Shown piece after piece: positions 3,945 through 31,912 of a DNA stretch of 64,000 nucleotides. The translations under genes were made by a program, and so were the position numbers. Where the stretch lies: NCBI GenBank assembly GCA_038228295.1, contig JBBRPH010000002.1:39293-103292 (forward strand), written 5' to 3'. Position 1 is the stretch's first letter; each line of letters starts with the position of its first letter. The stretch comes from Chloroflexia bacterium. Its GTDB lineage: Bacteria; Chloroflexota; Chloroflexia; QHBQ01; JAICKM01. The notes under the pieces were generated by a model. That model saw only the letters and a program-made list of their open reading frames with translations. It was not told where the DNA came from and searched no databases.

Positions 3945-4565
3945 CTACGCCGAACGTGTCTCTTCCTCTGGGACGCCCTGCGTCAGCGTGCGACGGAGTG
4001 CCTGCACTCCTCGATAATATAGACTTTTAACTGAAGGCAAGCTACGGTCCAACAACTTTGCCACCTGCGGCATCTCCCAACCCTCGACGATGTGCATCAG
4101 GATCACCTGCCGCTGTTCGTCGGTTAGTTCCGCCAACGCTGCTTGCAGTGCGTCGCGATCGCCCAGACTGTCAATCGTGCGGTCTAGGCCACCCGGCTCT
4201 CGACTGGGATCGTCGGCCAGCCAGCCCTCAAATGAGGTCTGCGGCCGGCGCTTGCGGCTGCGGTAATGGTCGGCGACTAGGTTACGGGCAATGCGAAACA
4301 GCCACGCCTGAAACGGCGTGCGGTCGAACACATAGCGATCAATGCTCTGCACCATACGCACCATCACCTCCGACACTACATCTTCGGCGGCGGCTGCGTC
4401 TTGCAACTGATAATAGGCATAGCGGTAGAGCGCCGGTGCGTGCTGCTGCACCACGTGTTCAATGGCGTGCGCATCACCTTGCTGTAGCCCGGCTACCAGG
4501 GCCGCATCATCCATGAGCAGTTGGGTGCGGTGGTCGGATCGTGTCCATACCTGCGGTTGTAGCAT
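3945..4565 (-). CDS. ECF (group 4) RNA polymerase sigma-70 family factor
   Basis: Region 2 ('FQAWLFRIARNLVADHYR') and region 4 HTH ('LTDEQRQVILMHIVEGWEMPQVAKLLDRSLPSVKSLYYRGVQALR'). The start may be the internal ATG at 4514 ('MDDAALVAGLQQGD'), because a promoter-like TTGACA-17-TACAAC overlaps the annotated ATG. Confidence 0.9.
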   Translation of the reverse strand: MLQPQVWTRSDHRTQLLMDDAALVAGLQQGDAHAIEHVVQQHAPALYRYAYYQLQDAAAAEDVVSEVMVRMVQSIDRYVFDRTPFQAWLFRIARNLVADHYRSRKRRPQTSFEGWLADDPSREPGGLDRTIDSLGDRDALQAALAELTDEQRQVILMHIVEGWEMPQVAKLLDRSLPSVKSLYYRGVQALRRTLTQGVPEEETRSA

Positions 4566-4584
4566 AGCGCCTTCGGTGTGTCAA
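4556..4584 (-). promoter_or_regulatory. Putative promoter of the ECF sigma gene
   Basis: Minus strand reads TTGACA (4584-4579), 17 nt, TACAAC (4561-4556). The -10 overlaps the longest-ORF start codon (4565-4563), which argues for the 4514 start. Confidence 0.3.
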
Positions 4585-4649
4585 GTGCCCTCAATCCCGG
4601 CAGCCGTTGCACCCGCAGCGGTCGGCAGCCCCGTTCACTCTGCACAACG

Positions 4650-4681
4650 CCCACGCCCCGCTAAAAGTAGCGGGGCGTGGG
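4650..4681 (-). terminator. Perfect 14-bp GC-rich hairpin downstream of 4718-5653
   Basis: CCCACGCCCCGCTA (4650-4663), loop AAAG, TAGCGGGGCGTGGG (4668-4681); every pair checked. Lies 37 nt after the stop of the minus-strand cupredoxin gene. Only a weak U tract (CGUUGUG) follows on the minus strand. Confidence 0.5.
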
Positions 4682-4717
4682 GACTACGTGCCTAGCCGAT
4701 TTGGGCCGCTTGGCCGG

Positions 4718-5653
4718 CTATTTCACCAGGATCGTCATCTGCATCAGTGGGTGGATCGTGCAGTAGATCGTGTAAGTGCCGGGGGTCATGAATTGGTGGC
4801 TGTAACTGTCACCCTTCTTTAGCACATTCGACGACCAATTGCCGTTCTTTTCCCCTACCGTATGGATCGTCGGTCCCTCGTTGGTCCAGGTGACGATCGT
4901 GCCCGTCGCGATGCTCAGGCTGGAAGGGGCGAAATCGAAGTCGAACTCCCGCACCTGGACTGCTCCGCCGGCCGCAGGAGTGGGGCCGGCGGTCGGGACG
5001 GCCGTCGGGCTACTACCGCCGTATTGCGCTTTGTAGCGGAAGGTGCCCAGTTGCGACAGCAACACATTATAGGGCGGCTGATTTTCGGGATGCATTTCGA
5101 ATACCGCGCGCTCGAAGTACTGCACGGTGTAGGACTTACCGTTCAGATCGCTGACCTCGCTGAACTCGTCGGAAATTGGATAACCCTGCTGGGCCAAGCC
5201 GCCGTGGCTCTCCCAGTAGGTGCGAAACACGCCGCCCAATGTGTGGCCGGTTTCGGCGAAGCGGCGCGGGTTGCTGGTACTGACCTGCTGACTGGGTGCG
5301 CCGGTGGGGTATTTAGCTTTGTAGCGGAAGGTGCCCAATTGGCTTAACAAGGTATCGAACGGCGGCTTGTTCTCGGGATGCTTCTCAAAGACGGCGCGCT
5401 CGAAGTATTGCACCGTATAGTTCTGACCGTTGAGGTCACTTTTCTCTTGCAGCTCTTCCGAAATAGGGTAGCCCTGTTGGGCCAGGCCGCCATGCCCATC
5501 CCAGTAGGTCAAGAATTGGCCGCTCACGGTGTGACCGGTTTGGGGAAACGTGCGGCTACCGCTCTGCGCCTGCCCCGCTGCCGGCCCGGCCAGCAACAGC
5601 CCACCCAACGCGAGCAGGCCAATGGATCGCGCAATCCAAGATGTCGGTTTCAT
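4718..5653 (-). CDS. Secreted protein: signal peptide, two ~80-aa 'GGLAQQGYPIS' repeats, C-terminal type-1-copper cupredoxin domain
   Basis: Signal-like N-terminus 'MKPTSWIARSIGLLALGGLLLAGPAAGQA'. Two ~70%-identical repeats ('GHT..G.F.TYW..HGGLAQQGYPIS.E..E.SDLNG..YTVQYFERAVFE.HPEN.PP...LLSQLGTFRYKA.Y'). The C-terminus has the ligand pattern H ('PTIHTV') ... 'CTIHPLM' (amicyanin/plastocyanin-like C-x2-H-x2-M). Confidence 0.8.
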   Translation of the reverse strand: MKPTSWIARSIGLLALGGLLLAGPAAGQAQSGSRTFPQTGHTVSGQFLTYWDGHGGLAQQGYPISEELQEKSDLNGQNYTVQYFERAVFEKHPENKPPFDTLLSQLGTFRYKAKYPTGAPSQQVSTSNPRRFAETGHTLGGVFRTYWESHGGLAQQGYPISDEFSEVSDLNGKSYTVQYFERAVFEMHPENQPPYNVLLSQLGTFRYKAQYGGSSPTAVPTAGPTPAAGGAVQVREFDFDFAPSSLSIATGTIVTWTNEGPTIHTVGEKNGNWSSNVLKKGDSYSHQFMTPGTYTIYCTIHPLMQMTILVK

Positions 5654-5676
5654 AGTAATCTCCTTGTGACTTTATA

Positions 5677-6360
5677 TTACTTGACAATAACGGTGCTGAT
5701 CATATCCGGATGTAGCGTGCAGATCACCGTGATCGTGCCCGGCGTGTTAAACGTATAGCGGTACTTCTGGCCCGTTTTCAAGATGTCGGATGACCAGCTT
5801 ACTTTGTCGTCGGCCACCGTATGGTCCGTCGGTCCGACGTTGGTCCACTCGATAGTGGTGCCCCGATCAATCGTGATCGTGGCCGGGGCAAACGCGAAGT
5901 CCTTTTCCACGACGGCCACCACTTTGGCGGCAGGCGCGACTGTGGGCTTGGCTGTCGGCCGGACGGTAGGCGGTAGCGGCTTGGGAGTAGGCGGTAGCGG
6001 CTTGAGAGTGGGTGGTACGTTCGTCGCGACGACCACCGGAGCGGTGGTGGCGGTGGGCGCAACCGCCACCGTGGCCGTGGGCGCCGCGACGGTAGGTGCC
6101 GCGACGGTGTCGGTGGGCGCGGCTACCGTGTCGGTAGGTGCCGCGACGGTTGCTACCGCGGCGAGTGTAGCGGTGGGTGCGGCCGTCGTATCAGTCGGCT
6201 GGGCAACCACAGCGGTGGCGGCGACCGTATCTATGGCGGCGACAGTCGGCACCACCGTGGCGGTCGGATCGGTGCCGCCGCAAGCCGCCAGCAGCAGCAA
6301 CAACCCTAGCGCACCGCCGCTTACGCTGCGCCGCCCCTGATTCCAAGCAATTCCCCTCAT
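5677..6360 (-). CDS. Lipoprotein with Thr/Ala/Pro-rich linker and C-terminal type-1-copper cupredoxin domain
   Basis: Lipobox 'LLLLAACGG'. ~130-aa TAP-rich linker with internal repeats ('APTDTVA' x2, 'LKPLPPTPKPLPPT'). The C-terminal domain is homologous to that of 4718-5653, with 'PTDHTV' ... 'CTLHPDM'. Confidence 0.8.
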   Translation of the reverse strand: MRGIAWNQGRRSVSGGALGLLLLLAACGGTDPTATVVPTVAAIDTVAATAVVAQPTDTTAAPTATLAAVATVAAPTDTVAAPTDTVAAPTVAAPTATVAVAPTATTAPVVVATNVPPTLKPLPPTPKPLPPTVRPTAKPTVAPAAKVVAVVEKDFAFAPATITIDRGTTIEWTNVGPTDHTVADDKVSWSSDILKTGQKYRYTFNTPGTITVICTLHPDMISTVIVK

Positions 6361-6520: not shown

Positions 6521-6549
6521 TTGTCGGACCCCGGCGGCCCCGCTATAAT
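6521..6549 (+). promoter_or_regulatory. Putative promoter of the thioredoxin-fold/NHL gene
   Basis: TTGTCG (6521-6526), 17 nt, TATAAT (6544-6549). The implied TSS would lie very close to the GGAGGAGG RBS (6554-6561), so this is uncertain. Confidence 0.3.
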
Positions 6550-6568
6550 GCGGGGAGGAGGCAGTACG

Positions 6569-8146
6569 ATGGACGAGATGGGGACTAGCGTGATTCATGC
6601 CCCGGCATTTCAGACGGGGCTGGACTGGATCAACACCGTGGGCGGCGCGCCGCTCACGCTGAGCGAGTTGCGCGGCAAGATCGTGTTGCTGGATTTCTGG
6701 ACATACGGCTGAATCAACTGCATCCATATTCTGCCGCAGTTGCGGCAGTTGGAGGCGCAGTTTCCTGATGAACTCGTTGTGATTGGCGTGCATTCAGGCA
6801 GATATACTGCCGAGCGCGACACGGCCAATGTGCGCGATGCTGTACTACGGCTGGGCCTAGATCATCCGGTGGTCAACGACCGCCAGTTCCGCATCTGGAA
6901 GAGCTATGCCGTCAACGCTTGGCCGACCGTGGTGCTGGTGGACCCGCGCGGCTATTACATCGGCAGCCATGCCGGGGAAATTACTGCTGAGGACTTCGGC
7001 CCGGTGATCGCGCAGGCGGTTGCCACGTTTGACCGGCTAGGCACGCTCGACCGCCGGGTGGTGCCTTTTCACCCGGCCCACCTGGATGAACCGGCGCGCC
7101 CGCTGCGCTACCCCGGCAAGGTGCTGGCGGTGGCCGGCACCGCCGGCGCGGCCGACCGCCTATTTATCGCCGATAGCGATCACCACCGCATCATCGGCAC
7201 GCACCTGGCCGCCGATGGGCACAGTGCCGCTGTAGATTGGGTCGCGGGGAGCGGCACAGCGGGAGCTGCCGACGGTCCCTTTGCCGGCGCGCAATTCTAC
7301 CGCCCACAGGGTATGGCCCTGGCCGGTGATACGCTTTATGTGGCCGACAGCGAAAACCACGCCATTCGCCGCCTAGCATTGGGCGCGAGGCAAGTGACGA
7401 CAGTGGCCGGGACGGGCGAGATCGGCGCGTATCAGCGCACCGGCGGCCCGGCTCGCACCACCGCGCTTAACTCGCCGTGGGATCTGGCTTGGGTCGGCAA
7501 TCGACTGTACATTGCGATGGCGGGATACCACCAGTTGTGGGTCTACGATCCTGTTGCGGACACAGCGCTGCCCTATGCCGGCACCGGGCGTGAAGCCCTC
7601 GGCGACGGCAAACTGTGGACCGCCGCCCTGAACCAGGCGCGCACAATGGACGATCTGCGCGGTTACGCCAGCCTAGCCCAACCGACCGGCTTGACTAGCG
7701 ACGGCACGCAGCTCTATTTTGCGTGCAGCGAAGCACAAGCGATTCGCACAGTCGATCTGAGGGTGGGTGACGTGCAAACACTGGTCGGTACCGGCCTGTT
7801 CGATTTCGCGGATAAGGACGGCGTGGGTGACGCAGTGCGCCTGCAACACCCCTTCGGCTTGGCCTATCACGCGGGCAGCGGGTGCTTGCTGGTAGCCGAT
7901 ACTTACAACAGCAAAATCAAACGGCTCGACCCGGCCACGCGCACCGTGACAACTTGGCTGGGCGGCAACCCGCGTGCGCTGACCAATGGCCCCGCCGCCG
8001 AGGCGCGCTTCAATGAGCCGGAAGGTGTGAGCGTGGCGGGCGACCGGCTGTATATCGCCGACACCAACAACCACGCCATCCGCGTGGTGGACTTGACGGA
8101 TCCGGCGGGGCACGTCACGACGCTGGAGTTGCGTGGCCTGGCTTAA
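6569..8146 (+). CDS. Thioredoxin-fold + NHL-repeat beta-propeller protein (NHLRC2-like) with in-frame TGA at 6710-6712: candidate selenoprotein or freshly disrupted gene
   Basis: Tracked ORFs 6521-6712 and 6740-8146 share one frame and are split only by TGA 6710-6712. The junction reads '[12 protein letters not shown][TGA][17 protein letters not shown]' (thioredoxin-fold active-site region). NHL repeats: '[11 protein letters not shown]', '[14 protein letters not shown]', '[14 protein letters not shown]', '[14 protein letters not shown]'. ATG 6569 follows GGAGGAGG. Coordinates assume read-through. Confidence 0.6.
6716..6762 (+). promoter_or_regulatory. SECIS-like two-tier stem-loop immediately downstream of the in-frame TGA
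   Basis: Lower stem AACTGC (6716-6721) / GCAGTT (6757-6762). Upper stem CTGCCGC (6731-6737) / GCGGCAG (6742-6748). Apical loop AGTT (6738-6741) contains G-U, ~27 nt after the UGA. Confidence 0.4.
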
Positions 8147-10322
8147 ACGCGCATCCGTGGACCCGTGGCTATGGGCGATCCTGGCAGGCGCGTTGCTACT
8201 GCGGCTGGGCTACCCGGTCCTGGTCGGCCTGCCGGCGCGCACGCCCCTGCACGGCTTTGTGATTGACGAGCAAGAGTACTTTGGGGCTGCATCCGTCTTC
8301 GCTGATGGGCGCGGTTTGCATTTCTATGACACGTTTCTCTGGACGCGCACGCCGCTTTACCCGCTGCTGGTCGGCGTGCTGTTCCGGCTATTCGGGCAAA
8401 ATACCGGACCGGTCTTTGCCTTACAAGCCGTCCTGTCCACGCTGACGCTGGTAGGGATTGCTGCCCTCGCCGCCCGTTGCGCCGCCCGCGCCCCGGCGCT
8501 CGGCCTGTCTCCGCGCGCCGCCGCTCGCCTCAGCGCACTACTCGGCGCGCTCTGGTTGCCCCTCACCCTGTTCAGCAACCTACTGTTGAGCGAGACGCTG
8601 TTCCTGCTGTTGGTGGTTGCCGCGTTCCTGTGCTTGCTGCGCTGGGCCGACAGTCGTCAGTCGTCAGCAACTTACGCATTACGTTTTACGCATTACGCTT
8701 CACTTTCCACTGCGGGCCTATGCCTGGGCTTGGCGGCCTTGACGCGGGCGACGGCATTGGCCTTTGTGCCGGTGGTGGGGCTGTGGGTGCTGTGGCTAGT
8801 GCGCCGCGCCGGCGCAGGGCAGGCGTTAGCGGTGCTGCTGATCGGGTTGGCGCTGCCGGTGGGGGCGGGGGTGGCCTATAATTACAGCGCGTATCATACA
8901 CTGATCCTCGGTGATACGAGTAGCGGCTATAACCTGTGGCTGGCGAGTACCGGCGTGCGCGATGCCGAACGGCTCAACAGCGACCTGCGGGCCATTGCCG
9001 ACCCGGTAGCGAAAGGCCGTTATGCGGCCGGTAAGGCGTGGGAAAATATCACGGCCCGGCCCGGCGATTTTGTGATCAAAGGCGTGAAAGAATTGCTTGA
9101 TTTTTGGCGCATCAACTTTGGCTCGGAGGAACGGCAGGTGCGCGGCTATAGCTGGGGACGTGTTCCCGCCCGCTTGCTCCTCAGCTTGCTGGTCGGCGAA
9201 GACGGCCTGTATATTGCCGTCGCGCTGCTGGCGCTGCTGGGCCTAGCTGCCGCGCCGCCCGATCCGCTGAAGGCACTCACCGCACTCTGGACGCTGACCT
9301 GGATGGCGGTGGTGTTTGTCTTTTTCGCTGTCAGCCGCTTTCGCTTGCCGGTGGTCGTGCTGTTGCTGCCCTGGACCTCGCTGGGCTTGGCTTATCTCCG
9401 CAAGGTGCTACAACGCAGCAAGCAAAAATACATATCCCGGAAGAACGGCCGACTAGCTGCGGGACTAGCTCTGGCGTTCCTGATCGTGGTCCTGCCTAGT
9501 CTGCCCGACGACATGGCGGCGGTAGCGCTGGGCGTGAGCAAGTGGATCGCGCAAGCGCCTTATCGGGCGGCTGTGCCGTTGCTTGGTCCCGGCGGCGACC
9601 CGGCGGCAGCTTTAGCCCGCTTGGCGCAGGCGGACCAAACCGTGCCGGATAGCCAGTGGGCGACTGACGCGGCGCAACTGGCCCAGACGGGGGCGGATTG
9701 GGCGGGGTTGGCCCAGCGCCCGGAGATCGCATTGGGGCGTGATAGCCCCCTAGCCGATCAGTACGAGCCGTTCCTGTTGAGCGGCGCGATTGCGCGGGAA
9801 CAAGGCCGAGCCGGCAACGCGCAAACGGCGTTCAACGCCCGTCCGGTGCAACTCGCCGGCTGGGCGGCGGTGGATTGGGCGGCGCGTTTTCTGCCCGCCC
9901 CGTCGGCCGCGCGGGTGGACGTGGGTAGCACGCTGGATTGGGGCGCGGTGGCCGGCTTCTACGGCAGTGAAACTGTCGGCAATGGGGCCGCAGTTGTGAC
10001 CTATCGTTGGAGTGGGCCGACCGCGACCGTGCGTATACCTGTCACTGTTGCGACCCGACAACTGATTGTCCGTTGCAATGGCGGACGGCCGGCAGATGTG
10101 TCGCCCGCGACGGTGCAATTGCAGGCTACGGGATCGCAGGGGCTACAGGCGCCGCGCAGCTATACGCTCCCGACTGCCGCCGGTTGGCAGGAGATCAGCC
10201 TGCCTGTCATGCCGCCCGCTGCCGGCTGGATGACGTTGACCCTCCGCACCGCCGGTTTTGTGCCGGGCGGCTATGATCCGCGCTTGCTGGGAGTGCAAGT
10301 GGATTGGGTGGAGGCGCGCTGA
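8133..10322 (+). CDS. GT-C fold membrane glycosyltransferase (family 39 / ArnT-PMT-like) with large C-terminal extracytoplasmic domain
   Basis: 729 aa with many TM helices. The first-loop acidic motif 'VIDEQEYFGAA' is typical of the PMT/ArnT family. GTG 8133 follows GGAG and overlaps the previous stop by 14 nt. Confidence 0.7.
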   Translation: MAWLKRASVDPWLWAILAGALLLRLGYPVLVGLPARTPLHGFVIDEQEYFGAASVFADGRGLHFYDTFLWTRTPLYPLLVGVLFRLFGQNTGPVFALQAVLSTLTLVGIAALAARCAARAPALGLSPRAAARLSALLGALWLPLTLFSNLLLSETLFLLLVVAAFLCLLRWADSRQSSATYALRFTHYASLSTAGLCLGLAALTRATALAFVPVVGLWVLWLVRRAGAGQALAVLLIGLALPVGAGVAYNYSAYHTLILGDTSSGYNLWLASTGVRDAERLNSDLRAIADPVAKGRYAAGKAWENITARPGDFVIKGVKELLDFWRINFGSEERQVRGYSWGRVPARLLLSLLVGEDGLYIAVALLALLGLAAAPPDPLKALTALWTLTWMAVVFVFFAVSRFRLPVVVLLLPWTSLGLAYLRKVLQRSKQKYISRKNGRLAAGLALAFLIVVLPSLPDDMAAVALGVSKWIAQAPYRAAVPLLGPGGDPAAALARLAQADQTVPDSQWATDAAQLAQTGADWAGLAQRPEIALGRDSPLADQYEPFLLSGAIAREQGRAGNAQTAFNARPVQLAGWAAVDWAARFLPAPSAARVDVGSTLDWGAVAGFYGSETVGNGAAVVTYRWSGPTATVRIPVTVATRQLIVRCNGGRPADVSPATVQLQATGSQGLQAPRSYTLPTAAGWQEISLPVMPPAAGWMTLTLRTAGFVPGGYDPRLLGVQVDWVEAR
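8651..8706. repeat. Heptanucleotide array (8 units) inside CDS 8133-10322
   Basis: CAGTCGT CAGTCGT CAGCAAC TTACGCA TTACGTT TTACGCA TTACGCT TCACTTT. Locally AT-rich. Translated as 'SRQSSATYALRFTHYASLS'. Confidence 0.8.
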
Positions 10323-11911
10323 TGAGAAGCAAGCGCGGCGATTGGGCGACGTGGGCGCTGGGCGGGGCGTTGGCCCTGCTGGCGCTGCTGCTGACTTTGC
10401 GTGTGCTGGATAATGCGCGCATCATGGCCGGGCTGTTCGTCTGGCCGTTTCAGCACGACGAGTCGGAGAGCATGATCGTAGCCGAGACGTTGCTGCTCGA
10501 TCATGGCGTGAATATCTATGCCAAATTGACCCCGCAGCAGTTTATCGCCGCACCCTATCCGCCGCTCTACTATCTGCTCAACTGGCCGGCTATCCACCTG
10601 CTCGGCCCGACGTTCAAGGTGGGGCGTGCCTTGTCGCTGGCGGCGACATTGGCGGTGGGGCTGTTGCTGATCGCGCTGACCCGCCGCCTGACGGGCGACC
10701 GGCTAGCGGCCGTAATCGCGGCGCCGGCGTGGGGCGCAATCGGCATTGTGGGCTTCTGGGGGGTGTTGGTCAAGCCCGATATGCTAACCGTCGCGCTGGG
10801 CCTAGCCGGGTTGCTCTGGTTGTTGCGGGCGATTGCGGGACAAGGGCACATCTGGGGGGCGTTGCCGCTGTTCTGGGCCGCCTTCTATAGCAAGCAAACC
10901 GCCGTTGCCGCCGCCGTTGCCGCTTGTGTCTGGCTGATTTTGCGCGATTGGCGACGCGGCCTGATTTTCAGCACTCTCTATGCGGTGGGTGCCGGCGGCG
11001 GCACGCTGTTGCTCAACTGGTGGACCGCCGGCGGCTACTTCTATCACGAGTTCACCGAGCACAACCTGCCCTGGTTCCCTGCTGCTTACTGGGATGCGTT
11101 TAGCAATTGGGCCGGCAGCTACTGGGCGTTGCTGCTGCCGGGCTTGCTGGGTCTGGTGTTCGCGCTGCGGCAGGGGACTGCCCTCACTCCTCAATCCCCT
11201 TTCCTACCAGGAGAGGAGGAGAATGGCACAGGTTCCCCTCTGCTAAAGTGGCTGCGGTCGCCGGCGGTCCTTGCGGCCGGCTACGCGGGCATGAGCCTGA
11301 TCATGTCGAGCGGCGCGGGTACGTTGGGCGGCAACCACAATCATCTGTTGGATCTGACGGCAGCGCTGTGTTGGGGATTAGGTATAGCAGTGGCGGTGCT
11401 GCGGGCGGCACCGCGTCCGCTGGGACAAGTGCTAGGGGCGGCGGCGGTGCTGGCGCTGTGTGTGGGAGTAGGTACGTCGGCCGGCACGCCGCACTGGTTG
11501 AGCCAGGAGTTTCGCGTGCTGCCGCGCACAGTGCTTGATGGGATGCCCAATGTAGCTCAGTATACCAGCAACACCGCCGGGCCGGTCTACTCCACCGACC
11601 TGAGTGTGCTGCTCGTCACCGACAAGTGGCGCGTGCGCCTGTGGACCACCGATCCCTATACTCAGACCCACGCCGGGTCGGCGCAAATCCATCGTCTGGC
11701 GGTGGATCGGTGGGACGAGTCGGCCTTGATCGCAGCGGTGCGGCGGCATTATTTCAGCCTGATCGTGCTACGCTTCAACCTCAACCCGGACGATCCCAAC
11801 TACGGGGCCGCCGGCGATCTCTCTCCAGGCATGGCACAGGCCGTGCGCGACTCGTACCAGTTGGACCAGAGCAATGTGCGCTTCCTGTATAAGCCGAAGC
11901 CCCAGCCTTAG
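10322..11911 (+). CDS. Polytopic membrane protein, probable second GT-C-like glycosyltransferase
   Basis: ORF track start is 10304 (TTG). I prefer ATG 10322 (TGATG overlap with the upstream stop, GGAGG 6 nt upstream). >=10 hydrophobic segments and an early acidic loop 'FQHDESESMIVAE'. The family call is weak. Confidence 0.55.
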   Translation: MRSKRGDWATWALGGALALLALLLTLRVLDNARIMAGLFVWPFQHDESESMIVAETLLLDHGVNIYAKLTPQQFIAAPYPPLYYLLNWPAIHLLGPTFKVGRALSLAATLAVGLLLIALTRRLTGDRLAAVIAAPAWGAIGIVGFWGVLVKPDMLTVALGLAGLLWLLRAIAGQGHIWGALPLFWAAFYSKQTAVAAAVAACVWLILRDWRRGLIFSTLYAVGAGGGTLLLNWWTAGGYFYHEFTEHNLPWFPAAYWDAFSNWAGSYWALLLPGLLGLVFALRQGTALTPQSPFLPGEEENGTGSPLLKWLRSPAVLAAGYAGMSLIMSSGAGTLGGNHNHLLDLTAALCWGLGIAVAVLRAAPRPLGQVLGAAAVLALCVGVGTSAGTPHWLSQEFRVLPRTVLDGMPNVAQYTSNTAGPVYSTDLSVLLVTDKWRVRLWTTDPYTQTHAGSAQIHRLAVDRWDESALIAAVRRHYFSLIVLRFNLNPDDPNYGAAGDLSPGMAQAVRDSYQLDQSNVRFLYKPKPQP

Positions 11912-23417: not shown

Positions 23418-26400
23418 TCACGGCGTAGTGGTCAGCAGGCCGTCCACGATCTTTGCCAGTTGGGCGCGGGTGGCATAGGCGTTGGGGCGGAAGGTGTGGT
23501 CGCTGTAGCCACCGACTAGGCCGTGGAAGGCGACCTGAGCGATAGAGTCATAGGCCCAGTAGCCGCCCGGCACATCGCGGAAGCCGGGATCGGGTGGCGG
23601 GGCGGCGGACCACCCGGCCGCCCCGACGATCAACTTGGCGACCTGGGCGCGCGTCACCGGCGCGATGGGGTGGAAGCCGCCGTCGCTGTAGCCGCTGATC
23701 AGGCCGGAGTGCGCCGCCGTCTCGATATACGAGTAGCCCCAGAACGTCGGCGGCACATCGTTGAAGGTGGGCGTGGCCGGGGTGATCAGCGCCCAGTTGC
23801 GCGCGCGACCCAGCATCGCCAAGAACTGCACACGGCTAGTCAGGTCGCCGGGGTGGAATGTACGGTCAATGTAGCCGCCGACGATGCCCCGACAGTAGAG
23901 ATCGCGGATGGCGGCATAGGCCCAATACGAGGGCGGCACGTCGCTGATACTGGGTATGCAGGGATAGGGCGAGGGAGTCGGCTCCGGTGTAGGATGCCCA
24001 TAGCGCAGGGTCATCGGCAACGAAACTAACGCGGGCGCATCGGCCGGCCCGACAAACACCTTGCCGTCGTAGATGCCCGGCACGAGACCGGGGCGGTTAT
24101 AGCCGACCGTGAAAGTAAGGGTGGTGCCGGGCAGGACCGGTCCCGACACTCGCGCCGGGGTCACGCTCAGATCGCCACCGCGCACCGCTCGAATCGTCAG
24201 GTCAAACAGCCTGCCGCCGTCGGGCACGTTCAGGCCGCCGTCCACGCGCACGCGGTACTGTCCATCATGCGCCGGTTCGACGCGGAAGTATTGCGCCGGC
24301 CCGCCGCCGCCGCCCCCCCCCAGCCAGACCCAGCGTGTGCCGTCGTAGTAATCCACAAAGAGGTAGAGGTCCATATTCGTCGCGCTTTGCGTGCTGAACT
24401 CCACCGAGGCGGTGTTGCTCAGGGTTATCTCATAGAAGTAGGTGCCCTGCGCCTGGATCGGCTGATCGTGGATCATCTGGCGCTGGCTGAGACCGTAGCC
24501 GGTGACGGCCAAGCCTTTGGGCAACGTGATCGCTGTGGTCACGCTAATCACCGCCTGATCCTGCGTGCGGTCGCTGTCGAGGTTGATTGCGTCGGTACTG
24601 AGTGTGACCGTGCCCAGCGTGCCGGTAAACGGCTCGCTGACGGCCGCCCCGCTGTACCAGACGTTGTGCATCACTACTTCATGCAGGCCGGGCTGGCCGA
24701 TAGGGCCGCTAACCCATTCACTGGGTCCGTTTGTGGCCGTCTGCCAGCCCCACTGTCCACCGCCCTCGTAATTATAGACGCTGCCGCCGATGCCCCACAG
24801 GTCATAGGGACCGAAGCGGGTCGGGTCCGTCACTGAATAGTAGTCCCAGGGGGCCGCGCCGAGCAGGAAGGTGTCGTTGTCGGTAGGATAGTGCGGCCAG
24901 GTAGTATTGACCCACAAGAAGGTATTGGCCGGCGGGGTGCTGGGGTTGAAGGCGAAGAAATGCCGCCAGTCGCCGGAGTCGGGGCGCCAGGCCCAGTTGC
25001 CCGCACCGGTCATGCGTCCGCTGTCATAGACGGTCGGTGCGGGGGGCGTGCCGCCGAAGCTGCCCCCTAACTGCGGCAGGGCGACGTTCAGCGCGACCGG
25101 CACTAGGCTCGTCCCACTGCTGCTCGTCACGCGCACCGCCCCTTCGTAGGCACCGGCGGCGGTGCCTGGCGGCACGCGCAGGGTCAGCCCCACCGTGGCG
25201 CTGCCGCGTGCGGGTACGGTCGCCCCGGCAGCATCGGGAGTCAGTACCGTCCAGGGGCTGTGGCGGTAGAACGTCGCCCGCAGGGTGATGTGTGTATGTG
25301 GGATCGTGGCGATGCCGTCGGCGTGTTGTAGGCCGATCCAAAGGCCGTTGTGGCTACGCTCCAGCGGGCGCTCGATAAAGCCTTCCATGTTATCCGCTTT
25401 CGGATAGCTGTACCAGAAGCGATTGTACTCGCCGGTTTGGATTTCGCCCGCTTGTACTACCCCGTCGTGGTTTTGATCGGTCCACAGCCGCCCATCGCTG
25501 TTCTTATCTTGCCAGTCGTAGGCTAGTAGGCGGAAGGTGTTATGCCAGAACAGGAACTGCGATTGCGGGTCACTGAGGGTGAACTCGGTGTAGGAGATGA
25601 CCGCCTGCACGCGCAGCAGGTCGGTGCCGGGCGGGATTACGCCGGTCAGATCCTGCAAATAGTCGGGGCGGGTGAAGCCGCCGGGCGTTTCGACGGTGTT
25701 AGTGGTCGTTACGGTCCAATCGTAATGGCCGTTTTCGAGCAGCAGATCGCTGGCGACCGTCGCCGCTAAGGGGGCGGGACCGGGATTGGTCAGGGTCAAC
25801 GTGGTGGTGCTTGTGCTGCCCGGATAGACATAGCCCGCGAAAAACGGCGCGCTTTGGCCGGGGGTCCAACGCGCCGGCGAGACCCGCAACCCGCTATAGC
25901 CCGCCGCCAGTTGCACCAGCCGGTTGCCGTCTACCAGCCCCGCGCCCTGCGTGAAGGGGCCGTAGTGCAGGTCACGCGCCGACGAGGTGAGCAGTTCGCG
26001 CGCGGTAGCGGCGCTCGGCCAGCCGCCGGTGGCGCGGTGATAGGCGTTGTAGCCGAGCGCCAGCACGCCCGCCGTGATCGGGGTCGCCATGCTGGTGCCA
26101 CCCCACAGTTCGTAGGCGTTGGCCCCATCCTGGCTCGCGTTCGGCGCGCTGTCGGCGGTGCCCCAGGCACCCACCGCCACGACCGCCGGGCCGTTGTTGC
26201 CGCCAATGGTCGGACCACGGTCCGACCAGGGTTGGATGTCGCCCCAGGTGATCTCCTGCGTGGAAGAGATTGGCTCGAAGGTCGTTGTTTCGCCGTATTG
26301 GGTAGCTGCGCCGACGGCGATCACGTTGGGCGCGGCGGCGGGTGGGGTCATGCTGCCGTAGCCGGGACCGCCGTTGCCGGTGGCCGCCACAAAACTGAGA

Positions 26401-28067
26401 TTGGGCGCATCAGCCTGCAAATAGGCCAGGTAGCGCGATTGGAAATCCCAGCCGGAGTCTACGCCGCCCGCAAAGCCAAAGCTCATCGAGGCGATTTGCG
26501 GCTCATCGCCGCTGTTGGGTCGCCCATCGAGCCCATAGGTCGCCAGCATTTGGGCGTCGTAGATCGCCATGCCGCCCCGATAGACGTTGCCCATGGCGAT
26601 CAGTTTCGCGTCGGGAGCCATGCCCTGCACCATGCCGCCCACGCCGGGCGGCTTGTAGGCCGGGCGCAAGCCGGCCCCCGGCCCATCAATAATGCCCTGC
26701 GCGACGACCGACGACGCGCAGGCAGTGCCGTGGTGTTCGGCATAGTCATACGATCCCATCATGGCGACCAGCGCGCCGTTCGCCGGGGCCGCGAGACCAT
26801 ACATCCAATCACTGGCCGGTACGGCGTGTTGCCCGTCGGCGATAAAGTAGAGCATCCCCGTGGAGAGATCGTTTAGGCCGTCGTGGTTCAGATCAAGGCC
26901 GTCTACTTCGTGCCCTTTACGAAGAGCGCGGCCGCTGCGTAGATCGTGTGAATTGGTCAGGTCCACGTACACCGTGTCGTAGATCCCCGCCTGCTGTGTG
27001 TCGGCCACGACCACTACGATGTACTCCTGATAGAGATCGAACGCCAGGTGTTCGTCAGGGAAGATACCGATGTGGTAGACCCCACTGCGGCTGGTGCCGG
27101 GCATCTGGTAGGTGTGCGTGATCGGATCCATGTGGTTGGCGGTGGCGGTGACCGTCTGGAAGTCGCCTCGCTCACCGTGAATCGTGGCCGAGGTGTCAAT
27201 ATACCAGGAGCCATAGGAGCGGATCGCGTTGTTGATGTCGCCGACGATGCCGCCGGCCAGCAGTTCCATTGAAGTCGGGTCAAAGGCCATCGGCCAGCCG
27301 TAGTAGGGCGAGGCGGGATCTTCGACGCGGGCAAAGGTATTCGCCAGATCGGGGTGGCCGAAGTCTACGCCGGAGTCGATCAGCGCGACTTTGACCCCGC
27401 CGCCGCGATAACCCGCCTGCCAGGCCGGTCGCACGTCCTGCACATCAACGGTGTGCCAACTGTCCGGCTGTGCCGCTTTCTGCGTTGCGGGTTTTACGGT
27501 CTGCGGTGGCGAGCCTGCGGCGACCGGCGACTGCCGCCCGGCGACTGCCGCCGGAGTGCTGTTACCTGATGCCTGATGCCTGATCGCTGCATCTGGGCGA
27601 CCGCCGGCCTGACCGATGCCGCGCCCGGCGAGTTCGGGTGGCACGGGCGCGGTGGGCGCGGTGTCGGCTAGGACGGCGACGACGTTGGGTGTGGCGAGCG
27701 CGCTGATCTGCCCGGCGCGTACTCGGCCCTGCGTGAAGACGAGGCCGCGCGCATCTGGTCGGCGGGCGACGGCGCCTTGCAGCAAGCCCGTGGGTGCCGC
27801 GCCCTGGCTGACGACGATAACCGGCAGCAGCGTATCGGGGCCGGCGGCCGCAGCGACGGCCTGGCGTAGGGCCGGCGCGATACGTCCGGCGGCACGGTCG
27901 GCGCCGCTGCTGATTTGCGGCTTGCCGAGCGTGCTCACGGGCGGCGGTCCGCCGGCCGCGACACCGCCGGGCGTCGCAGGGCTGCCCAGCGCGAGCAGCA
28001 AGGCCAGGATCACAGGTGAGAACGCGAGCGCGCGCAAGGCTAGACGATGGCGCAGGACTGTAGGCAT
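23418..28067 (-). CDS. Very large secreted subtilisin-like (S8) serine protease with three C-terminal SLH domains
   Basis: Catalytic triad motifs 'VALIDSGVD', 'HGTACAS', 'GGTSMATPITAGV'. Signal peptide. Three SLH repeats ('FSDVPPSYWAYAAIRDL..', 'FNDVPPTFWGYSYIETA..', 'FRDVPGGYWAYDSIAQV..'). Confidence 0.9.
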   Translation of the reverse strand: MPTVLRHRLALRALAFSPVILALLLALGSPATPGGVAAGGPPPVSTLGKPQISSGADRAAGRIAPALRQAVAAAAGPDTLLPVIVVSQGAAPTGLLQGAVARRPDARGLVFTQGRVRAGQISALATPNVVAVLADTAPTAPVPPELAGRGIGQAGGRPDAAIRHQASGNSTPAAVAGRQSPVAAGSPPQTVKPATQKAAQPDSWHTVDVQDVRPAWQAGYRGGGVKVALIDSGVDFGHPDLANTFARVEDPASPYYGWPMAFDPTSMELLAGGIVGDINNAIRSYGSWYIDTSATIHGERGDFQTVTATANHMDPITHTYQMPGTSRSGVYHIGIFPDEHLAFDLYQEYIVVVVADTQQAGIYDTVYVDLTNSHDLRSGRALRKGHEVDGLDLNHDGLNDLSTGMLYFIADGQHAVPASDWMYGLAAPANGALVAMMGSYDYAEHHGTACASSVVAQGIIDGPGAGLRPAYKPPGVGGMVQGMAPDAKLIAMGNVYRGGMAIYDAQMLATYGLDGRPNSGDEPQIASMSFGFAGGVDSGWDFQSRYLAYLQADAPNLSFVAATGNGGPGYGSMTPPAAAPNVIAVGAATQYGETTTFEPISSTQEITWGDIQPWSDRGPTIGGNNGPAVVAVGAWGTADSAPNASQDGANAYELWGGTSMATPITAGVLALGYNAYHRATGGWPSAATARELLTSSARDLHYGPFTQGAGLVDGNRLVQLAAGYSGLRVSPARWTPGQSAPFFAGYVYPGSTSTTTLTLTNPGPAPLAATVASDLLLENGHYDWTVTTTNTVETPGGFTRPDYLQDLTGVIPPGTDLLRVQAVISYTEFTLSDPQSQFLFWHNTFRLLAYDWQDKNSDGRLWTDQNHDGVVQAGEIQTGEYNRFWYSYPKADNMEGFIERPLERSHNGLWIGLQHADGIATIPHTHITLRATFYRHSPWTVLTPDAAGATVPARGSATVGLTLRVPPGTAAGAYEGAVRVTSSSGTSLVPVALNVALPQLGGSFGGTPPAPTVYDSGRMTGAGNWAWRPDSGDWRHFFAFNPSTPPANTFLWVNTTWPHYPTDNDTFLLGAAPWDYYSVTDPTRFGPYDLWGIGGSVYNYEGGGQWGWQTATNGPSEWVSGPIGQPGLHEVVMHNVWYSGAAVSEPFTGTLGTVTLSTDAINLDSDRTQDQAVISVTTAITLPKGLAVTGYGLSQRQMIHDQPIQAQGTYFYEITLSNTASVEFSTQSATNMDLYLFVDYYDGTRWVWLGGGGGGGPAQYFRVEPAHDGQYRVRVDGGLNVPDGGRLFDLTIRAVRGGDLSVTPARVSGPVLPGTTLTFTVGYNRPGLVPGIYDGKVFVGPADAPALVSLPMTLRYGHPTPEPTPSPYPCIPSISDVPPSYWAYAAIRDLYCRGIVGGYIDRTFHPGDLTSRVQFLAMLGRARNWALITPATPTFNDVPPTFWGYSYIETAAHSGLISGYSDGGFHPIAPVTRAQVAKLIVGAAGWSAAPPPDPGFRDVPGGYWAYDSIAQVAFHGLVGGYSDHTFRPNAYATRAQLAKIVDGLLTTTP
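27564..27584. repeat. (ACCTGAT)(GCCTGAT)x2 heptamer array inside the S8 protease CDS
   Basis: Read directly. Translated on the minus strand as 'IRHQASG'. Confidence 0.8.
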
Positions 28068-28301
28068 GGGGTAGATCCTTTGCTGAGTGAGGGGCGGCTA
28101 GATCGCCCTTCATTATACCAGATACCAGATTTGCCCACCGCAGTTGTCCAGCAGACGCATATCGGCGGGCCGTGTTTTTGTCTGGGCGATTGGTAACGCC
28201 CGGCGCAGATCGACTATAATAGCACCGCTATGGGCAATGCCGGCGGAACGTGCGGCTGCGATCTCTGCTACCGATCAAGGGAAGGGAAAGGATACCACCT
28301 G

Positions 28302-29522: not shown

Positions 29523-30728
29523 ATGCAGATCGCCCTCAACGGCTTCTACTGGGACCAACCCGATACCGGCAGCGGGCAGTATTTGCGGCGGCTGTGGCGC
29601 TATCTGCCGCGACTGCCGCCAGCGGCCGCGCACACGTTTGTGTTACTGCGCCCCGGTAACGGGCCGCCTGCCAATATGCCGCCGGCGCCGACGAACGCAC
29701 GGCTGTTGACAGTGGGACTGTGGCCGGCGGCGGGGCACGGCGGGCAGCGGGCCAAAATCTGGTGGGAGCAGGTCGGTTTGCCGGCGGCGGCGCGTCGAGT
29801 GGGCGCAGATCTGCTGCATTGCCCCTACCTGGCCGCGCCGCTGGTCGCCTTTTGTCCCACCGTGATTACGGTACATGACCTGATCCCGTGGGCTTTGCCG
29901 GCCTATCGGGCGGGGCGGGCGGTGCGCCTCTATCTGTCCCTAGCGCGCTTGGCCGCAGGCCGCGCTTCCCTCCTGCTGACCGACTCGGAAGCCTCGCGGC
30001 GTGATGTGCTACGCTATTTTCGCGTGCCGCCGGCGCAGGTTCGCACAGTGCTGCTGGGCATTGAGCCGGAGTTTGCCGTCGCGCCGCCCGCCGCCGATGT
30101 CGCCGCCATGCGGGTGCGCTTCGGCCTACCGCCGCGTTATGCGTTCTACATCGGTGGCTACGACCGGCGCAAGGATGTGCCTACCTTATTGCGCGTTTGG
30201 GCCGCCGCGTTGCCGCAACTGGCCGAGTCCGAGGAATCGCCGGTACTGGCATTGGCCGGGCGCATCCCCGCACCCGGTGGCCTTTACCCCGACATCACCA
30301 GCCTCGCCGCGCAGTTGGGGCTGATCACGCCCGACGCGACCACTGCGCCGCTACGCCTGCTAGGCCGGGTGAGCGAAGCCGACAAGCGCTTGCTACTGGC
30401 GGGGGCAACGGTGTTTCCTTTCCCCTCGCGCTACGAAGGTTTTGGCTACGATCCGCTGGAAGCGATGGCCGCCGGGGTGCCGGTGCTGGCGACTAACCGT
30501 AGCGCCCTGCCCGAAATCGTGGGCGACGCAGGCGACTTGCTGCCGGCGGGCGATATTCCTGCCTGGAGCGCCGCGCTCGTCCGCCTCTGGCGCGACCCCG
30601 CGCACCACGCGGATCGTGCCGCGCGCAGCCGCGCCCAGGCTGCGTGCTTTGACCCGGCGCGAACGGCGGCGGCGACGCTGGTGGGCTACTTGGACGTGCT
30701 GCGAGAAAGTGGTAAGCCGACCTTATGA
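29523..30728 (+). CDS. Glycosyltransferase family 4
   Basis: 'FPSRYEGFGYDPLEAMAAGVPVLATNRSALPEIVGDAG' GT4 signature. Confidence 0.85.
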   Translation: MQIALNGFYWDQPDTGSGQYLRRLWRYLPRLPPAAAHTFVLLRPGNGPPANMPPAPTNARLLTVGLWPAAGHGGQRAKIWWEQVGLPAAARRVGADLLHCPYLAAPLVAFCPTVITVHDLIPWALPAYRAGRAVRLYLSLARLAAGRASLLLTDSEASRRDVLRYFRVPPAQVRTVLLGIEPEFAVAPPAADVAAMRVRFGLPPRYAFYIGGYDRRKDVPTLLRVWAAALPQLAESEESPVLALAGRIPAPGGLYPDITSLAAQLGLITPDATTAPLRLLGRVSEADKRLLLAGATVFPFPSRYEGFGYDPLEAMAAGVPVLATNRSALPEIVGDAGDLLPAGDIPAWSAALVRLWRDPAHHADRAARSRAQAACFDPARTAAATLVGYLDVLRESGKPTL

Positions 30729-31912
30729 CCGAGCCGCGCAAGCCCCGCGTCCTCTGGATCTGGCACGCGGCGGTGATCGCCGAGTACCAGAAGCCGCTGG
30801 CGGCGCTGGCCGCCGCAGGGCGCTGGGATGTACATCTGCTGGTGCCGACGGCATGGCCGGAGCGCGCTGGGCAAATGGTGGCGTTGGAACGCCGCGCCGA
30901 CCCCGATTATACGATCCATGTCGGGCAAGTTTGGTTCCCGCAGCATTACTACATCTACCTCTTCCCCGGCCTGTTGGCGACCCTATGGCAGGTGCAGCCA
31001 ACCGTGTTGCATATCTACGAGGAAGCGCATAGCCTGCTGCCCGCGCTGATCCTGGCGCTGCGGCCGCTATTGGAGCGGCTGTGGCGGCGGCGCGTGCCGG
31101 TGATCCTGTACGCGGCGCAGAACATCGTTAAACGTTACCCGCCGCCGTTCCGTTGGTTCGAGCGCTTTTGCTTCCGCTACGCCGACGCGATCCTGCCCTG
31201 TGGCGTGGGCGTGGCGGCGACCCTGCGGCAGAAGGGCTATCGTGGGCCGTTGCCGCACGTGCCGCTGCCGACCGACCCGGCGGTATTCCGGCGCGATTCT
31301 GTAGCGGGCGCGGCGGTGCGCCAGGCAGTGGGCATTCCAGCCGCAGCGGTGGTAATCGGCTACGCGGGCAAGCTGGCGGCCGAAAAAGGTGTGATGACAC
31401 TGTTGCAAGCGTTCTTGACCCTACCTACCGTGGCCGATGGACCGCATCTGCTGATCGTGGGCGACGGGCCGTTGCGGCCGGCGTTGACGGCGGCGGCCAC
31501 GGCGGGGGGCGCGGCGGATCGCGTTCATCTGGTCGGCGCATTGGACCATGCCGCGCTGCCGGCGCACCTGAGCGCCGGCGATGTGTGGGTGGTGCCGTCG
31601 GAGACGCGCCCCAACTGGCGCGAACAGTTCGGGCGGGCGGCGGTTGAGGCGATGGCCTGTGGCAATGCCACCGTTGTCTCCGACTGCGGCGAACTGCCGC
31701 GTGTGGTCGGTCCCGCCGGGCAGGTGTTTCCCGAAGGTGACGTGCCGGCGCTGGCGGCGCTGCTGGCCGCGCTCTGCACCGACCCGGCGGCGCGGACCGC
31801 ATTGGGAGCCGCCGGGCGTGCTCGCGTGCTGGCCTGCTATACGCCGACCCAGGCGGCGCGCCTGTACAGCGCGGCTTATAGTGCAGCGTTGCACATGAAA
31901 CGTGAAACGTGA
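30725..31912 (+). CDS. Glycosyltransferase family 4
   Basis: 'EQFGRAAVEAMACGNATVVSDCGELPRVVGPAG'. ATGA overlap with the upstream GT4 gene. Confidence 0.85.
   Translation: MTEPRKPRVLWIWHAAVIAEYQKPLAALAAAGRWDVHLLVPTAWPERAGQMVALERRADPDYTIHVGQVWFPQHYYIYLFPGLLATLWQVQPTVLHIYEEAHSLLPALILALRPLLERLWRRRVPVILYAAQNIVKRYPPPFRWFERFCFRYADAILPCGVGVAATLRQKGYRGPLPHVPLPTDPAVFRRDSVAGAAVRQAVGIPAAAVVIGYAGKLAAEKGVMTLLQAFLTLPTVADGPHLLIVGDGPLRPALTAAATAGGAADRVHLVGALDHAALPAHLSAGDVWVVPSETRPNWREQFGRAAVEAMACGNATVVSDCGELPRVVGPAGQVFPEGDVPALAALLAALCTDPAARTALGAAGRARVLACYTPTQAARLYSAAYSAALHMKRET

Follow-up and report, generated by a model that had tools for sequence, protein, structure and literature searches.

A probable selenocysteine-containing thioredoxin-NHL protein of Chloroflexota related to NHLRC2 and SOQ1

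Human NHLRC2 (6gc1/6g7w) and Arabidopsis SOQ1 (7djj-7djm) carry a thioredoxin (Trx)-like domain, an NHL beta-propeller as well as a C-terminal domain (CTD), and the motif C-C-(I/V)-N-C of these proteins faces a conserved cleft with the NHL propeller (PMC6107167). Bacterial homologues of NHLRC2, including some from Chloroflexi, were described by Biterova et al. 2018, together with a subgroup that has no CTD (PMC6107167). For SOQ1, electron transfer from the Trx-like domain to two Cys residues of the CTD has been reported, and methionine sulfoxide reductase activity is reported for the lumenal domains (preprint 10.1101/2024.11.01.621559). Here we analyze a gene at positions 6569-8146 (plus strand) of a 64,000-nucleotide stretch of DNA from a Chloroflexia bacterium (contig JBBRPH010000002.1; the whole stretch is called the window below), in which an in-frame UGA (6710-6712) occupies the position of the second Cys of this motif. 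Based on the comparisons described below, this UGA is very probably decoded as selenocysteine (Sec).

The window protein resembles NHLRC2 and SOQ1 in its whole-length alignment to them and in the position of the FWTYxxINC stretch, but it reads G-U-I-N-C where they read C-C-I-N-C, with Sec in place of the second Cys and Gly in place of the first. Moreover, it has no CTD, no HAD domain and no transmembrane helix. A second relative, DipZ of M. tuberculosis (2hyx/5cyy), has the active site SCINC, which is of the same xCINC type as that of the window protein (PMC6107167), but DipZ includes a fused membrane electron-transfer domain, uses Cys rather than Sec and has no NHL propeller.

Among known selenoproteins, the closest are those of the Trx fold in a 2026 catalogue of 119 prokaryotic families, which has entries for a 'Redoxin family protein' (PF08534), a 'Thiol:disulfide interchange protein' (PF13098) and a 'Prx-like thiol:disulfide oxidoreductase' (PF00578) (PMC13188914). 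The catalogued 'Thiol-disulfide isomerase-like / Redoxin family' selenoproteins are like the window protein in their TlpA/redoxin-type Trx fold with Sec first in a UxxC motif, and also in having a bacterial Sec insertion sequence (bSECIS) directly downstream and numerous Cys homologues (PMC13188914 Table 1). Going by the table, the redoxin-type entries (representatives MGB1650493.1 and HEU0032618.1) are described as having a single Trx-type domain, unlike the window protein. An NHL, NHLRC2 or SOQ1 architecture is named in none of the 119 families (PMC13188914); nor did we find mention of NHL, NHLRC2 or SOQ1 in the selenoprotein literature that we searched (the 119-family catalogue, BSepDB, deep-Sep, Global Ocean Sampling (GOS) and ISME papers), or of Sec forms in the NHLRC2 and SOQ1 papers that we searched. 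The Trx-NHL selenoprotein may already be present in BSepDB, silently, under a redoxin label.

An in-frame UGA at the active site of a Trx-NHL protein

Two open reading frames (ORFs), 6521-6712 and 6740-8146, lie in the same frame with TGA 6710-6712 as the sole interruption between them. An earlier note on this DNA had pointed out this pair of ORFs, with the read-through junction LLDFWTYG-[TGA], and both observations were confirmed from the sequence and by translation from ATG 6569. Read from this ATG to TAA 8144-8146 on the plus strand, the gene is one frame of 525 codons in which the UGA is codon 48, and we take 6569-8146 to be the complete selenoprotein coding sequence (CDS) based on translation through the UGA, Pfam matches and full-length homology to SOQ1 and NHLRC2. 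The proposed Sec codon is the first position of a U-I-N-C motif whose last position, TGC codon 51 (6719-6721), would supply the resolving Cys of UxxC and is an invariant Cys in 85/85 distinct sequences. The start codon is ATG 6569 and not TTG 6521, which a mechanical ORF call had used, since a Shine-Dalgarno-like GGAGGAGG (6554-6561) read from the sequence is found 7 nt upstream of the ATG, a promoter-like site is found further upstream (TTGTCG, a 17-nt spacer and TATAAT; 6521-6549, plus strand; 10/12 consensus positions, by consensus match only), and relatives begin at a homologous MD(E/D/T)M. The N-terminus MDEMGTS is kept in relatives, which also have AGGAGG at the equivalent spot ahead of the homologous ATG.

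We searched for domains with Cys put in place of the TGA. Pfam placed Thioredoxin_8, AhpC-TSA and Redoxin within residues 11-134 and NHL repeats in the remainder. A thioredoxin-like domain of the TlpA/ResA/DipZ type occupies residues ~11-134 (6599-6970; Redoxin 12-134, Thioredoxin_8 36-129, and matches in the PDB), and it is this domain that the UGA cuts in automatic annotation. A six-bladed NHL beta-propeller occupies residues ~177-524 (7097-8140, plus strand; NHL Pfam E 2e-25), and aligns to the NHL-only structures 7djm and 6g7w. When the PDB was searched with phmmer, the window protein matched the lumenal domains of Arabidopsis SOQ1 over residues 4-524 (7djj, E 8e-103) and human NHLRC2 over residues 10-510 (6gc1, E 1e-92). 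The Trx domains of DipZ, ResA and TlpA were weaker matches to the N-terminal part only, with that of DipZ (2hyx/5cyy, E 1.5e-23) as the nearest solved single Trx domain. Since homology to solved structures extends to E 1e-92 or better, we regard the fold as already fixed. Matches of the window protein to the ResA, StoA and TlpA models of NCBIfam were all under the cut-off, and none of the NCBIfam selenoprotein models scored above its cut-off.

Since FWTYG[C]INC of the query aligns under FWTYCCINC of SOQ1, the TGA corresponds to the second Cys of CCINC, that is, to the first Cys of CxxC. The orthologue alignment agrees with the SOQ1 alignment on this point, in keeping with the earlier placement of the TGA in the catalytic CxxC column. 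Thus, the redox pair of NHLRC2/SOQ1, formed by the second and third Cys of CC(I/V)NC, corresponds to U48-I-N-C51 in the window protein, and the first Cys of the motif corresponds to Gly47. This first position is Cys in 17/33 Cys forms and in 41/52 Sec forms and is Gly in the others; it does not appear, from these sequences, to define the family in bacteria. The window protein ends at the final NHL blade, without the CTD of SOQ1 and NHLRC2. Because a CTD-less subgroup is recognized (PMC6107167), the missing CTD marks a subtype rather than exclusion from the family. From its sequence, we read the window protein as belonging to the NHLRC2/SOQ1 family, as a member that bears Sec and lacks the CTD.

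The hairpin downstream of the UGA

The candidate bSECIS is a core hairpin at 6731-6748 (plus strand), in which a 7-bp upper stem formed by 6731-6737 (CUGCCGC) and 6742-6748 (GCGGCAG) closes the loop AGUU (6738-6741). A lower stem, 6716-6721 (AACUGC) with 6757-6762 (GCAGUU), lies beneath it in the window sequence. The earlier note had described both stems, and both are present in the minimum free energy (MFE) fold of 6705-6775; it was also right that AGUU contains G-U, but the loop is 25 nt from the A of the UGA rather than ~27 nt after the UGA. The 71-nt two-tier fold alone is unremarkable for sequence this rich in G+C (z -1.75; 10/200 shuffles equal it), while the upper hairpin alone (30 nt, 6725-6754) has a folding energy of -13.3 kcal/mol, with z -3.64 and 0/200 shuffles as stable.

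In the bSECIS model, an apical loop of 3-9 nt sits on a stem of 4-16 bp, one of the first two loop positions is G, usually followed by G or U, the distance from UGA to loop is 16-37 nt, and the MFE is <= -7.5 kcal/mol (PMC13188914). The window hairpin agrees with the model on 4/4 counts (4-nt AGUU, 7 bp, 25 nt, -13.3 kcal/mol). Like the archetype of this model, fdhF of E. coli, it lies within the CDS 3' of the UGA and has a small loop with G and then U; it differs in its 4-nt AGUU loop and in that no conserved bulged U was identified. Its G-U is presumably ~7 nt further from the UGA than that of fdhF. Recognition of the hairpin by SelB is predicted.

Conservation of the helices was examined in an alignment of 49 distinct TGA sequences, with slid-partner controls. 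We found that 95.3% of cells in the upper helix are paired, compared to 22-53% in the controls, and that 5/7 upper-stem pairs have compensatory double changes. The base of the stem varies among CUG/CAG, UUU/AAA, CUU/AAG and CUC/GAG; within the inner stem, G-C changes to C-G or U-A, and CCGC/GCGG changes to CCCC/GGGG or CCUC/GAGG. In contrast, the lower stem (6716-6762, plus strand), which is in the MFE fold of the window and completed the two-tier structure of the earlier note, is specific to this sequence: 65.7% of cells are paired, compared to 40-53% in the slid controls. We considered both the lower stem and the middle helix of the window MFE fold as conserved features and rejected them, as the share of paired cells is 66% for the former and 71% for the latter and covariation is slight.

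The hairpin goes with the TGA. The earlier note had proposed to ask whether relatives with TGA carry a conserved hairpin; TGA forms do keep a covarying downstream hairpin, and Cys forms are without it. The local fold has a mean energy of -10.8 kcal/mol in 42 distinct Sec forms and of -3.0 kcal/mol in the 33 Cys forms (p 1.5e-12 by the Mann-Whitney test, with no correction for shared ancestry). In Sec forms, the P-Q-L-R that follows the motif is encoded by CCG CAG UUG CGG (48/51, 50/50, 50/52 and 45/48 for the four codons), while the Cys forms have P-D-L-K with free codon choice, including, for example, five Leu codons; synonymous variation is suppressed at codons +7 to +11 in Sec forms only. 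To define a background, we scanned 1.47 Mb of DNA for an in-frame TGA with >=30 open codons on each side and a hairpin of >=7 bp with an NGUN loop 18-34 nt downstream. This pattern occurred 51 times at the site of this gene and 3 times elsewhere.

We also scanned Joint Genome Institute (JGI) metagenomes for the exact pattern FWT[YF][GC]-TGA-[IV]NC and found at least 120 matching contigs (related loci, numbered L001 onward, here L090-L209). Among the matches listed, 110/113 distinct variants agree with the bSECIS model, with G-U or G-G in a small loop located 22-30 nt from the UGA, and many of them use unrelated stems (including UUCCCUG-GGU-CAGGGAA, CUGCCG-AGUUA-CGGCAG, CCCCUC-GGU-GAGGGG and CCAGAGC-UGGAC-GCUCUGG). 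Because the structure is kept without conservation of sequence across these variants, we read the hairpin as a functional SECIS, and the diversity of metagenomic stems is the strongest evidence that we have for this reading. About 37 of the contigs among the matches listed encode Trx-NHL proteins.

A single-domain redoxin of ~190 aa, a sibling of the NHL form, outnumbers it among the matches listed (at least 61/114 contigs). It shares the FWTYG-U-INC motif with the NHL form and, often, the PQLR hairpin as well (CCG CAG UUG CGG; for example, L099 at 6927 and L117 at 6450), and it is mostly annotated as a truncated protein of 103 aa, one cluster of which has 416 member sequences. The catalogued redoxin-type entries may be this sibling.

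Relatives of the gene and alternatives to selenocysteine

The TGA is kept widely among relatives of the gene. When 5.8 billion proteins were searched, the nearest 13-14 relatives of the window protein (64-100% identity) were all annotated as proteins of 449-470 aa without the Trx domain, and homologues at <=55% identity were full length. We obtained the DNA of 8 of these close relatives, and in 8/8 an upstream ORF of 46-48 aa terminates with a TGA that falls in this column. In the window taken together with 88 related loci, 80 of which come from a scan of one genome per GTDB species (best match 70% identical), the codon in the column is TGA in 56, TGC in 23 and TGT in 10, and is TAA or TAG in none. 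TGA forms come from Chloroflexia, Dehalococcoidia (many of them complete chromosomes of metagenome-assembled genomes (MAGs)), Anaerolineae, Ardenticatenia, Thermomicrobia, Dormibacterota, NC10 and one Chthonomonadia MAG, and the TGA is kept among independent assemblies at protein identity as low as ~47%. Within the clade of the window, synonymous divergence is ~0.5, while non-synonymous divergence amounts to 0.15 over the 40 codons that precede the TGA and to 0.09 over the 70 that follow; the ratio of non-synonymous to synonymous change (pN/pS) is ~0.31 upstream and ~0.18 downstream. These values indicate that both halves of the gene are under purifying selection and have long been kept as protein.

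In a crude neighbor-joining (NJ) tree, most Sec forms cluster, but L062 and L039 lie among Cys forms, and the Cys forms L049 and L070 lie near Sec forms. Since these four are placed away from their type, the tree suggests a few independent exchanges between Sec and Cys. The TGA form L062 (at 9962; NC10 CSP1-5), which lies amid Cys forms, has its own unrelated hairpin (CCAGAGC-UGGAC-GCUCUGG), and the combination of this placement and this hairpin suggests an independent conversion of Cys to Sec. The CTD is absent in 54/56 Sec forms (442-479 aa after U) and present in 29/31 complete Cys forms (573-619 aa after the Cys codon); the exceptions are L019 and L039, which are Sec forms with a CTD, and L052 and L078, which are Cys forms without one. 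This association between Sec and loss of the CTD is largely the history of one clade and is confounded by phylogeny.

Several observations weigh against reading the UGA as Sec. First, the comparisons between Sec and Cys forms are not phylogenetically independent. Second, one carrier of the TGA, L039 (at 9660; the Chthonomonadia MAG), has no convincing hairpin (-5.7 kcal/mol) and has the Cys-type P-D-L-K codons; it may be a pseudogene, an error or a case of atypical SECIS. Third, Rfam gave no match, with chance hits only, either for the window at the gathering threshold or for 6600-6900 at E <= 10. Fourth, RNAalifold favored another helix, CAACUGC (6715-6721) with GCAGUUG (6736-6742), in which the I-N-C codons match perfectly with the 5' arm of the SECIS stem at its 3' end, with the loop and with the base that opens the 3' arm, so that it excludes the SECIS hairpin. 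This helix is nearly invariant in Sec forms, without covariation, and its invariance makes it uninformative. In 45/49 sequences the SECIS stem is the more stable of the two, and individual MFE folds contain the alternative helix in 4 cases versus 37 for the SECIS stem. We rejected it as the real SECIS, given its lower stability, its lack of covariation and the fact that it is impossible in variants such as L062, which keep a hairpin at the usual place; it could be a coincidence or a conformational alternative. Finally, selA, selB, selD and tRNA-Sec were not found, either in the 64 kb of the window or in any of the 209 related loci. ARAGORN reported no tRNA-Sec in either set, the sole match to SelA, SelB or SelD homologues was EF-Tu in L040, and none of the 30 window ORFs that were assigned by Pfam, all of them ordinarily, is related to selenium. 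Because sel genes are normally unlinked to selenoprotein genes, their absence from the window is uninformative, and a tRNA-Sec with the 8/4 acceptor/T-arm that Chloroflexi can have may escape ARAGORN. Indirect support for Sec decoding comes from Chloroflexi as a Sec-decoding phylum (PMC5322559), with an unusual 8/4 tRNA-Sec (PMC5389517), and from one carrier of the TGA, L036 (contig DCAE01000079.1, TGA at locus position 9971). L036 is the Dehalococcoidia bacterium UBA1141, for which BSepDB lists 49 selenoprotein genes, placing it among the most selenoprotein-rich bacteria (PMC13326102). ARAGORN also called a 90-nt 'tRNA-Val(GAC)' at window 31450-31539, inside a glycosyltransferase ORF (30716-31912; Glycos_transf_1); as Rfam finds no tRNA there, this call is almost certainly a false positive.

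We considered that the hairpin might direct recoding of the UGA with insertion of another residue, either Cys carried by a tRNA(Sec)-like tRNA(Cys) or Trp or Cys inserted by hairpin-stimulated near-cognate read-through. The lack of Sec machinery in the window and related loci leaves room for this explanation, as does the description of unusual tRNA(Sec)-like species, including some from Chloroflexi (PMC5389517), and comparison of a UGA and its hairpin cannot alone name the residue that is inserted. However, the hairpin conforms on 4/4 counts to the bSECIS model of the SelB type, Sec and Cys exchange at the column just as they do in the catalogued UxxC selenoproteins, one carrier genome (UBA1141) is on record as rich in selenoproteins, and there is little reason to keep a costly UGA and hairpin merely for Cys. 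We therefore judge insertion of a residue other than Sec to be unlikely.

It is also quite improbable that the gene is truly split into a 47-residue peptide and an NHL protein translated from an internal start, with the hairpin serving in coupling, re-initiation or mRNA stability. All public gene callers do give an ORF of 46-48 aa followed by one of 449-470 aa, and an in-frame TTG is found at 6740. This TTG sits inside the stem, however, and has no Shine-Dalgarno before it, and residues 49-57, which separate the TGA from the earliest possible restart, show conservation at the protein level. A real stop would sever the thioredoxin fold within CxxC, yet both pieces are under purifying selection; furthermore, this stop is always TGA in the 56 loci, never TAA or TAG, and the column holds Cys in 33 full-length homologues.

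A pseudogene or an error, which the earlier note had left as its alternative in the form of a very recent nonsense mutation or a wrong base call, has a very low probability. TGC differs from TGA by one base and the window comes from a metagenome-type assembly, so the event itself would be simple. The TGA is, however, shared by 55 further loci of independent assemblies and by at least 120 metagenome contigs. It persists at identity down to ~47%, pN/pS is well below 1 before and after it, and it goes with a hairpin that is not found in Cys forms. Thus, a recent mutation or an error is excluded, because the TGA persists in independent assemblies and both halves of the gene are under purifying selection.

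A genome-wide change of code, in which UGA would stand for an amino acid such as Trp or Gly, has nothing in its favor but the in-frame TGA itself and can be neglected, because 13/39 long window ORFs end at TGA (17 end at TAG and 9 at TAA), a scan of the window found no other TGA-split coding ORF that looks like a split gene or has a redox motif, and homologues have Cys at this column rather than Trp or Gly; the earlier note, which had all other genes stopping at TGA, overstated the usage, but the count still suffices to exclude a reassigned code.

Insertion of Sec at UGA 6710-6712, the reading of the earlier note, is supported by the position of the TGA in the CxxC column, by the covarying hairpin and by selection on both halves, and each check proposed against it that was run came out for Sec. 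We thus regard the window gene, on the strength of these sequence comparisons, as a genuine UxxC selenoprotein gene; UxxC selenoproteins of the Trx fold with a downstream bSECIS are already well known. If the UGA encodes Sec, we envisage that SelB carrying Sec-tRNA(Sec) would recognize the hairpin at 6731-6748 once the ribosome meets the UGA, with the AGUU loop presenting its G-U 25 nt past the UGA, such that Sec would be inserted rather than translation terminated. The product would be a two-domain enzyme that looks cytoplasmic, without a signal peptide. By homology to NHLRC2 and SOQ1, G-U48-I-N-C51 would lie at the N-terminus of helix alpha-1, facing the cleft with the NHL propeller. Sec48 would be the attacking nucleophile and Cys51 the resolving residue, forming a selenol-thiol/selenenylsulfide couple, and the propeller may hold a protein substrate that the Sec reduces. 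The likely activity would be reduction of an oxidized protein partner, either by disulfide/selenenylsulfide exchange or by repair of the methionine-sulfoxide type.

Neighborhood, annotation and meaning for the family

The selenoprotein gene is followed, with a 14-nt overlap between its stop and the next start, by an ORF for a 729-aa membrane protein (8133-10322, plus strand) to which Pfam gave no match, and the two are probably in the same operon. The same gene is called downstream, with the overlap, in L001, L003, L004 and L008. The next ORF past the 729-aa gene, in the same plus-strand block (8133-11911), is PMT_2-like. Upstream and divergent (3945-6360, minus strand) are an extracytoplasmic function (ECF)-type sigma-70 factor and two cupredoxin/plastocyanin-like proteins with long linkers rich in Pro, Thr and Ala. 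The neighborhood is kept in the clade of the window, with the sigma factor, cupredoxin and downstream gene recurring in L003, L004 and L009. Elsewhere in the window, and unrelated to the selenoprotein, is a 1559-aa subtilase (Peptidase_S8; 23418-28097, minus strand) with C-terminal S-layer homology domains.

No public protein with >62% identity in the Trx domain extends across the TGA. Relatives truncated at the TGA carry the NCBI name 'alkyl hydroperoxide reductase', and those that we followed (P0002, P0004, P0008 and P0009) are named either in this way or as 'sugar lactone lactonase YvrE' or 'DNA-binding beta-propeller fold protein YncE'; no pipeline among these recognized the selenoprotein. 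Because every public call that we found for the clade splits the gene at the UGA, the redox domain is lost from the annotation of many Chloroflexota genomes. We propose, with less than even confidence, that the Sec-containing, CTD-less Trx-NHL protein is a distinct uncatalogued selenoprotein family and the first Sec form of the NHLRC2/SOQ1 lineage, widespread in Chloroflexota and systematically annotated as two genes.

Pairs of Sec and Cys at one position are an established marker of catalytic redox cysteines. To our knowledge, classical thioredoxin assays have detected no activity of NHLRC2, the protein of FINCA disease, whose function is not known. Because exchange of Sec and Cys occurs at the second Cys of CCINC, we read this motif as a catalytic redox center, and the Sec/Cys pair argues from sequence comparison that it holds a true redox nucleophile in the NHLRC2/SOQ1 family. 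The mechanism of Sec insertion that we propose is a textbook one, and the value of the finding lies in correcting a widespread mis-annotation and in evolutionary evidence on a family that is linked to disease and functionally obscure. The set of variants, in which one design of spacing and loop is placed on many stems, is large and clean and could serve as training material for predictors of bacterial SECIS elements and selenoproteins. A naturally 'super-nucleophilic' bacterial orthologue would be tractable for substrate trapping. If our reading is true, the loss of the CTD in nearly all Sec forms would imply that the Sec enzyme works on its substrate directly, with no relay of electrons to a CTD, and the natural exchange of Cys for Sec would point to the second Cys of CCINC as the catalytic redox nucleophile in a family whose activity in humans is still disputed.

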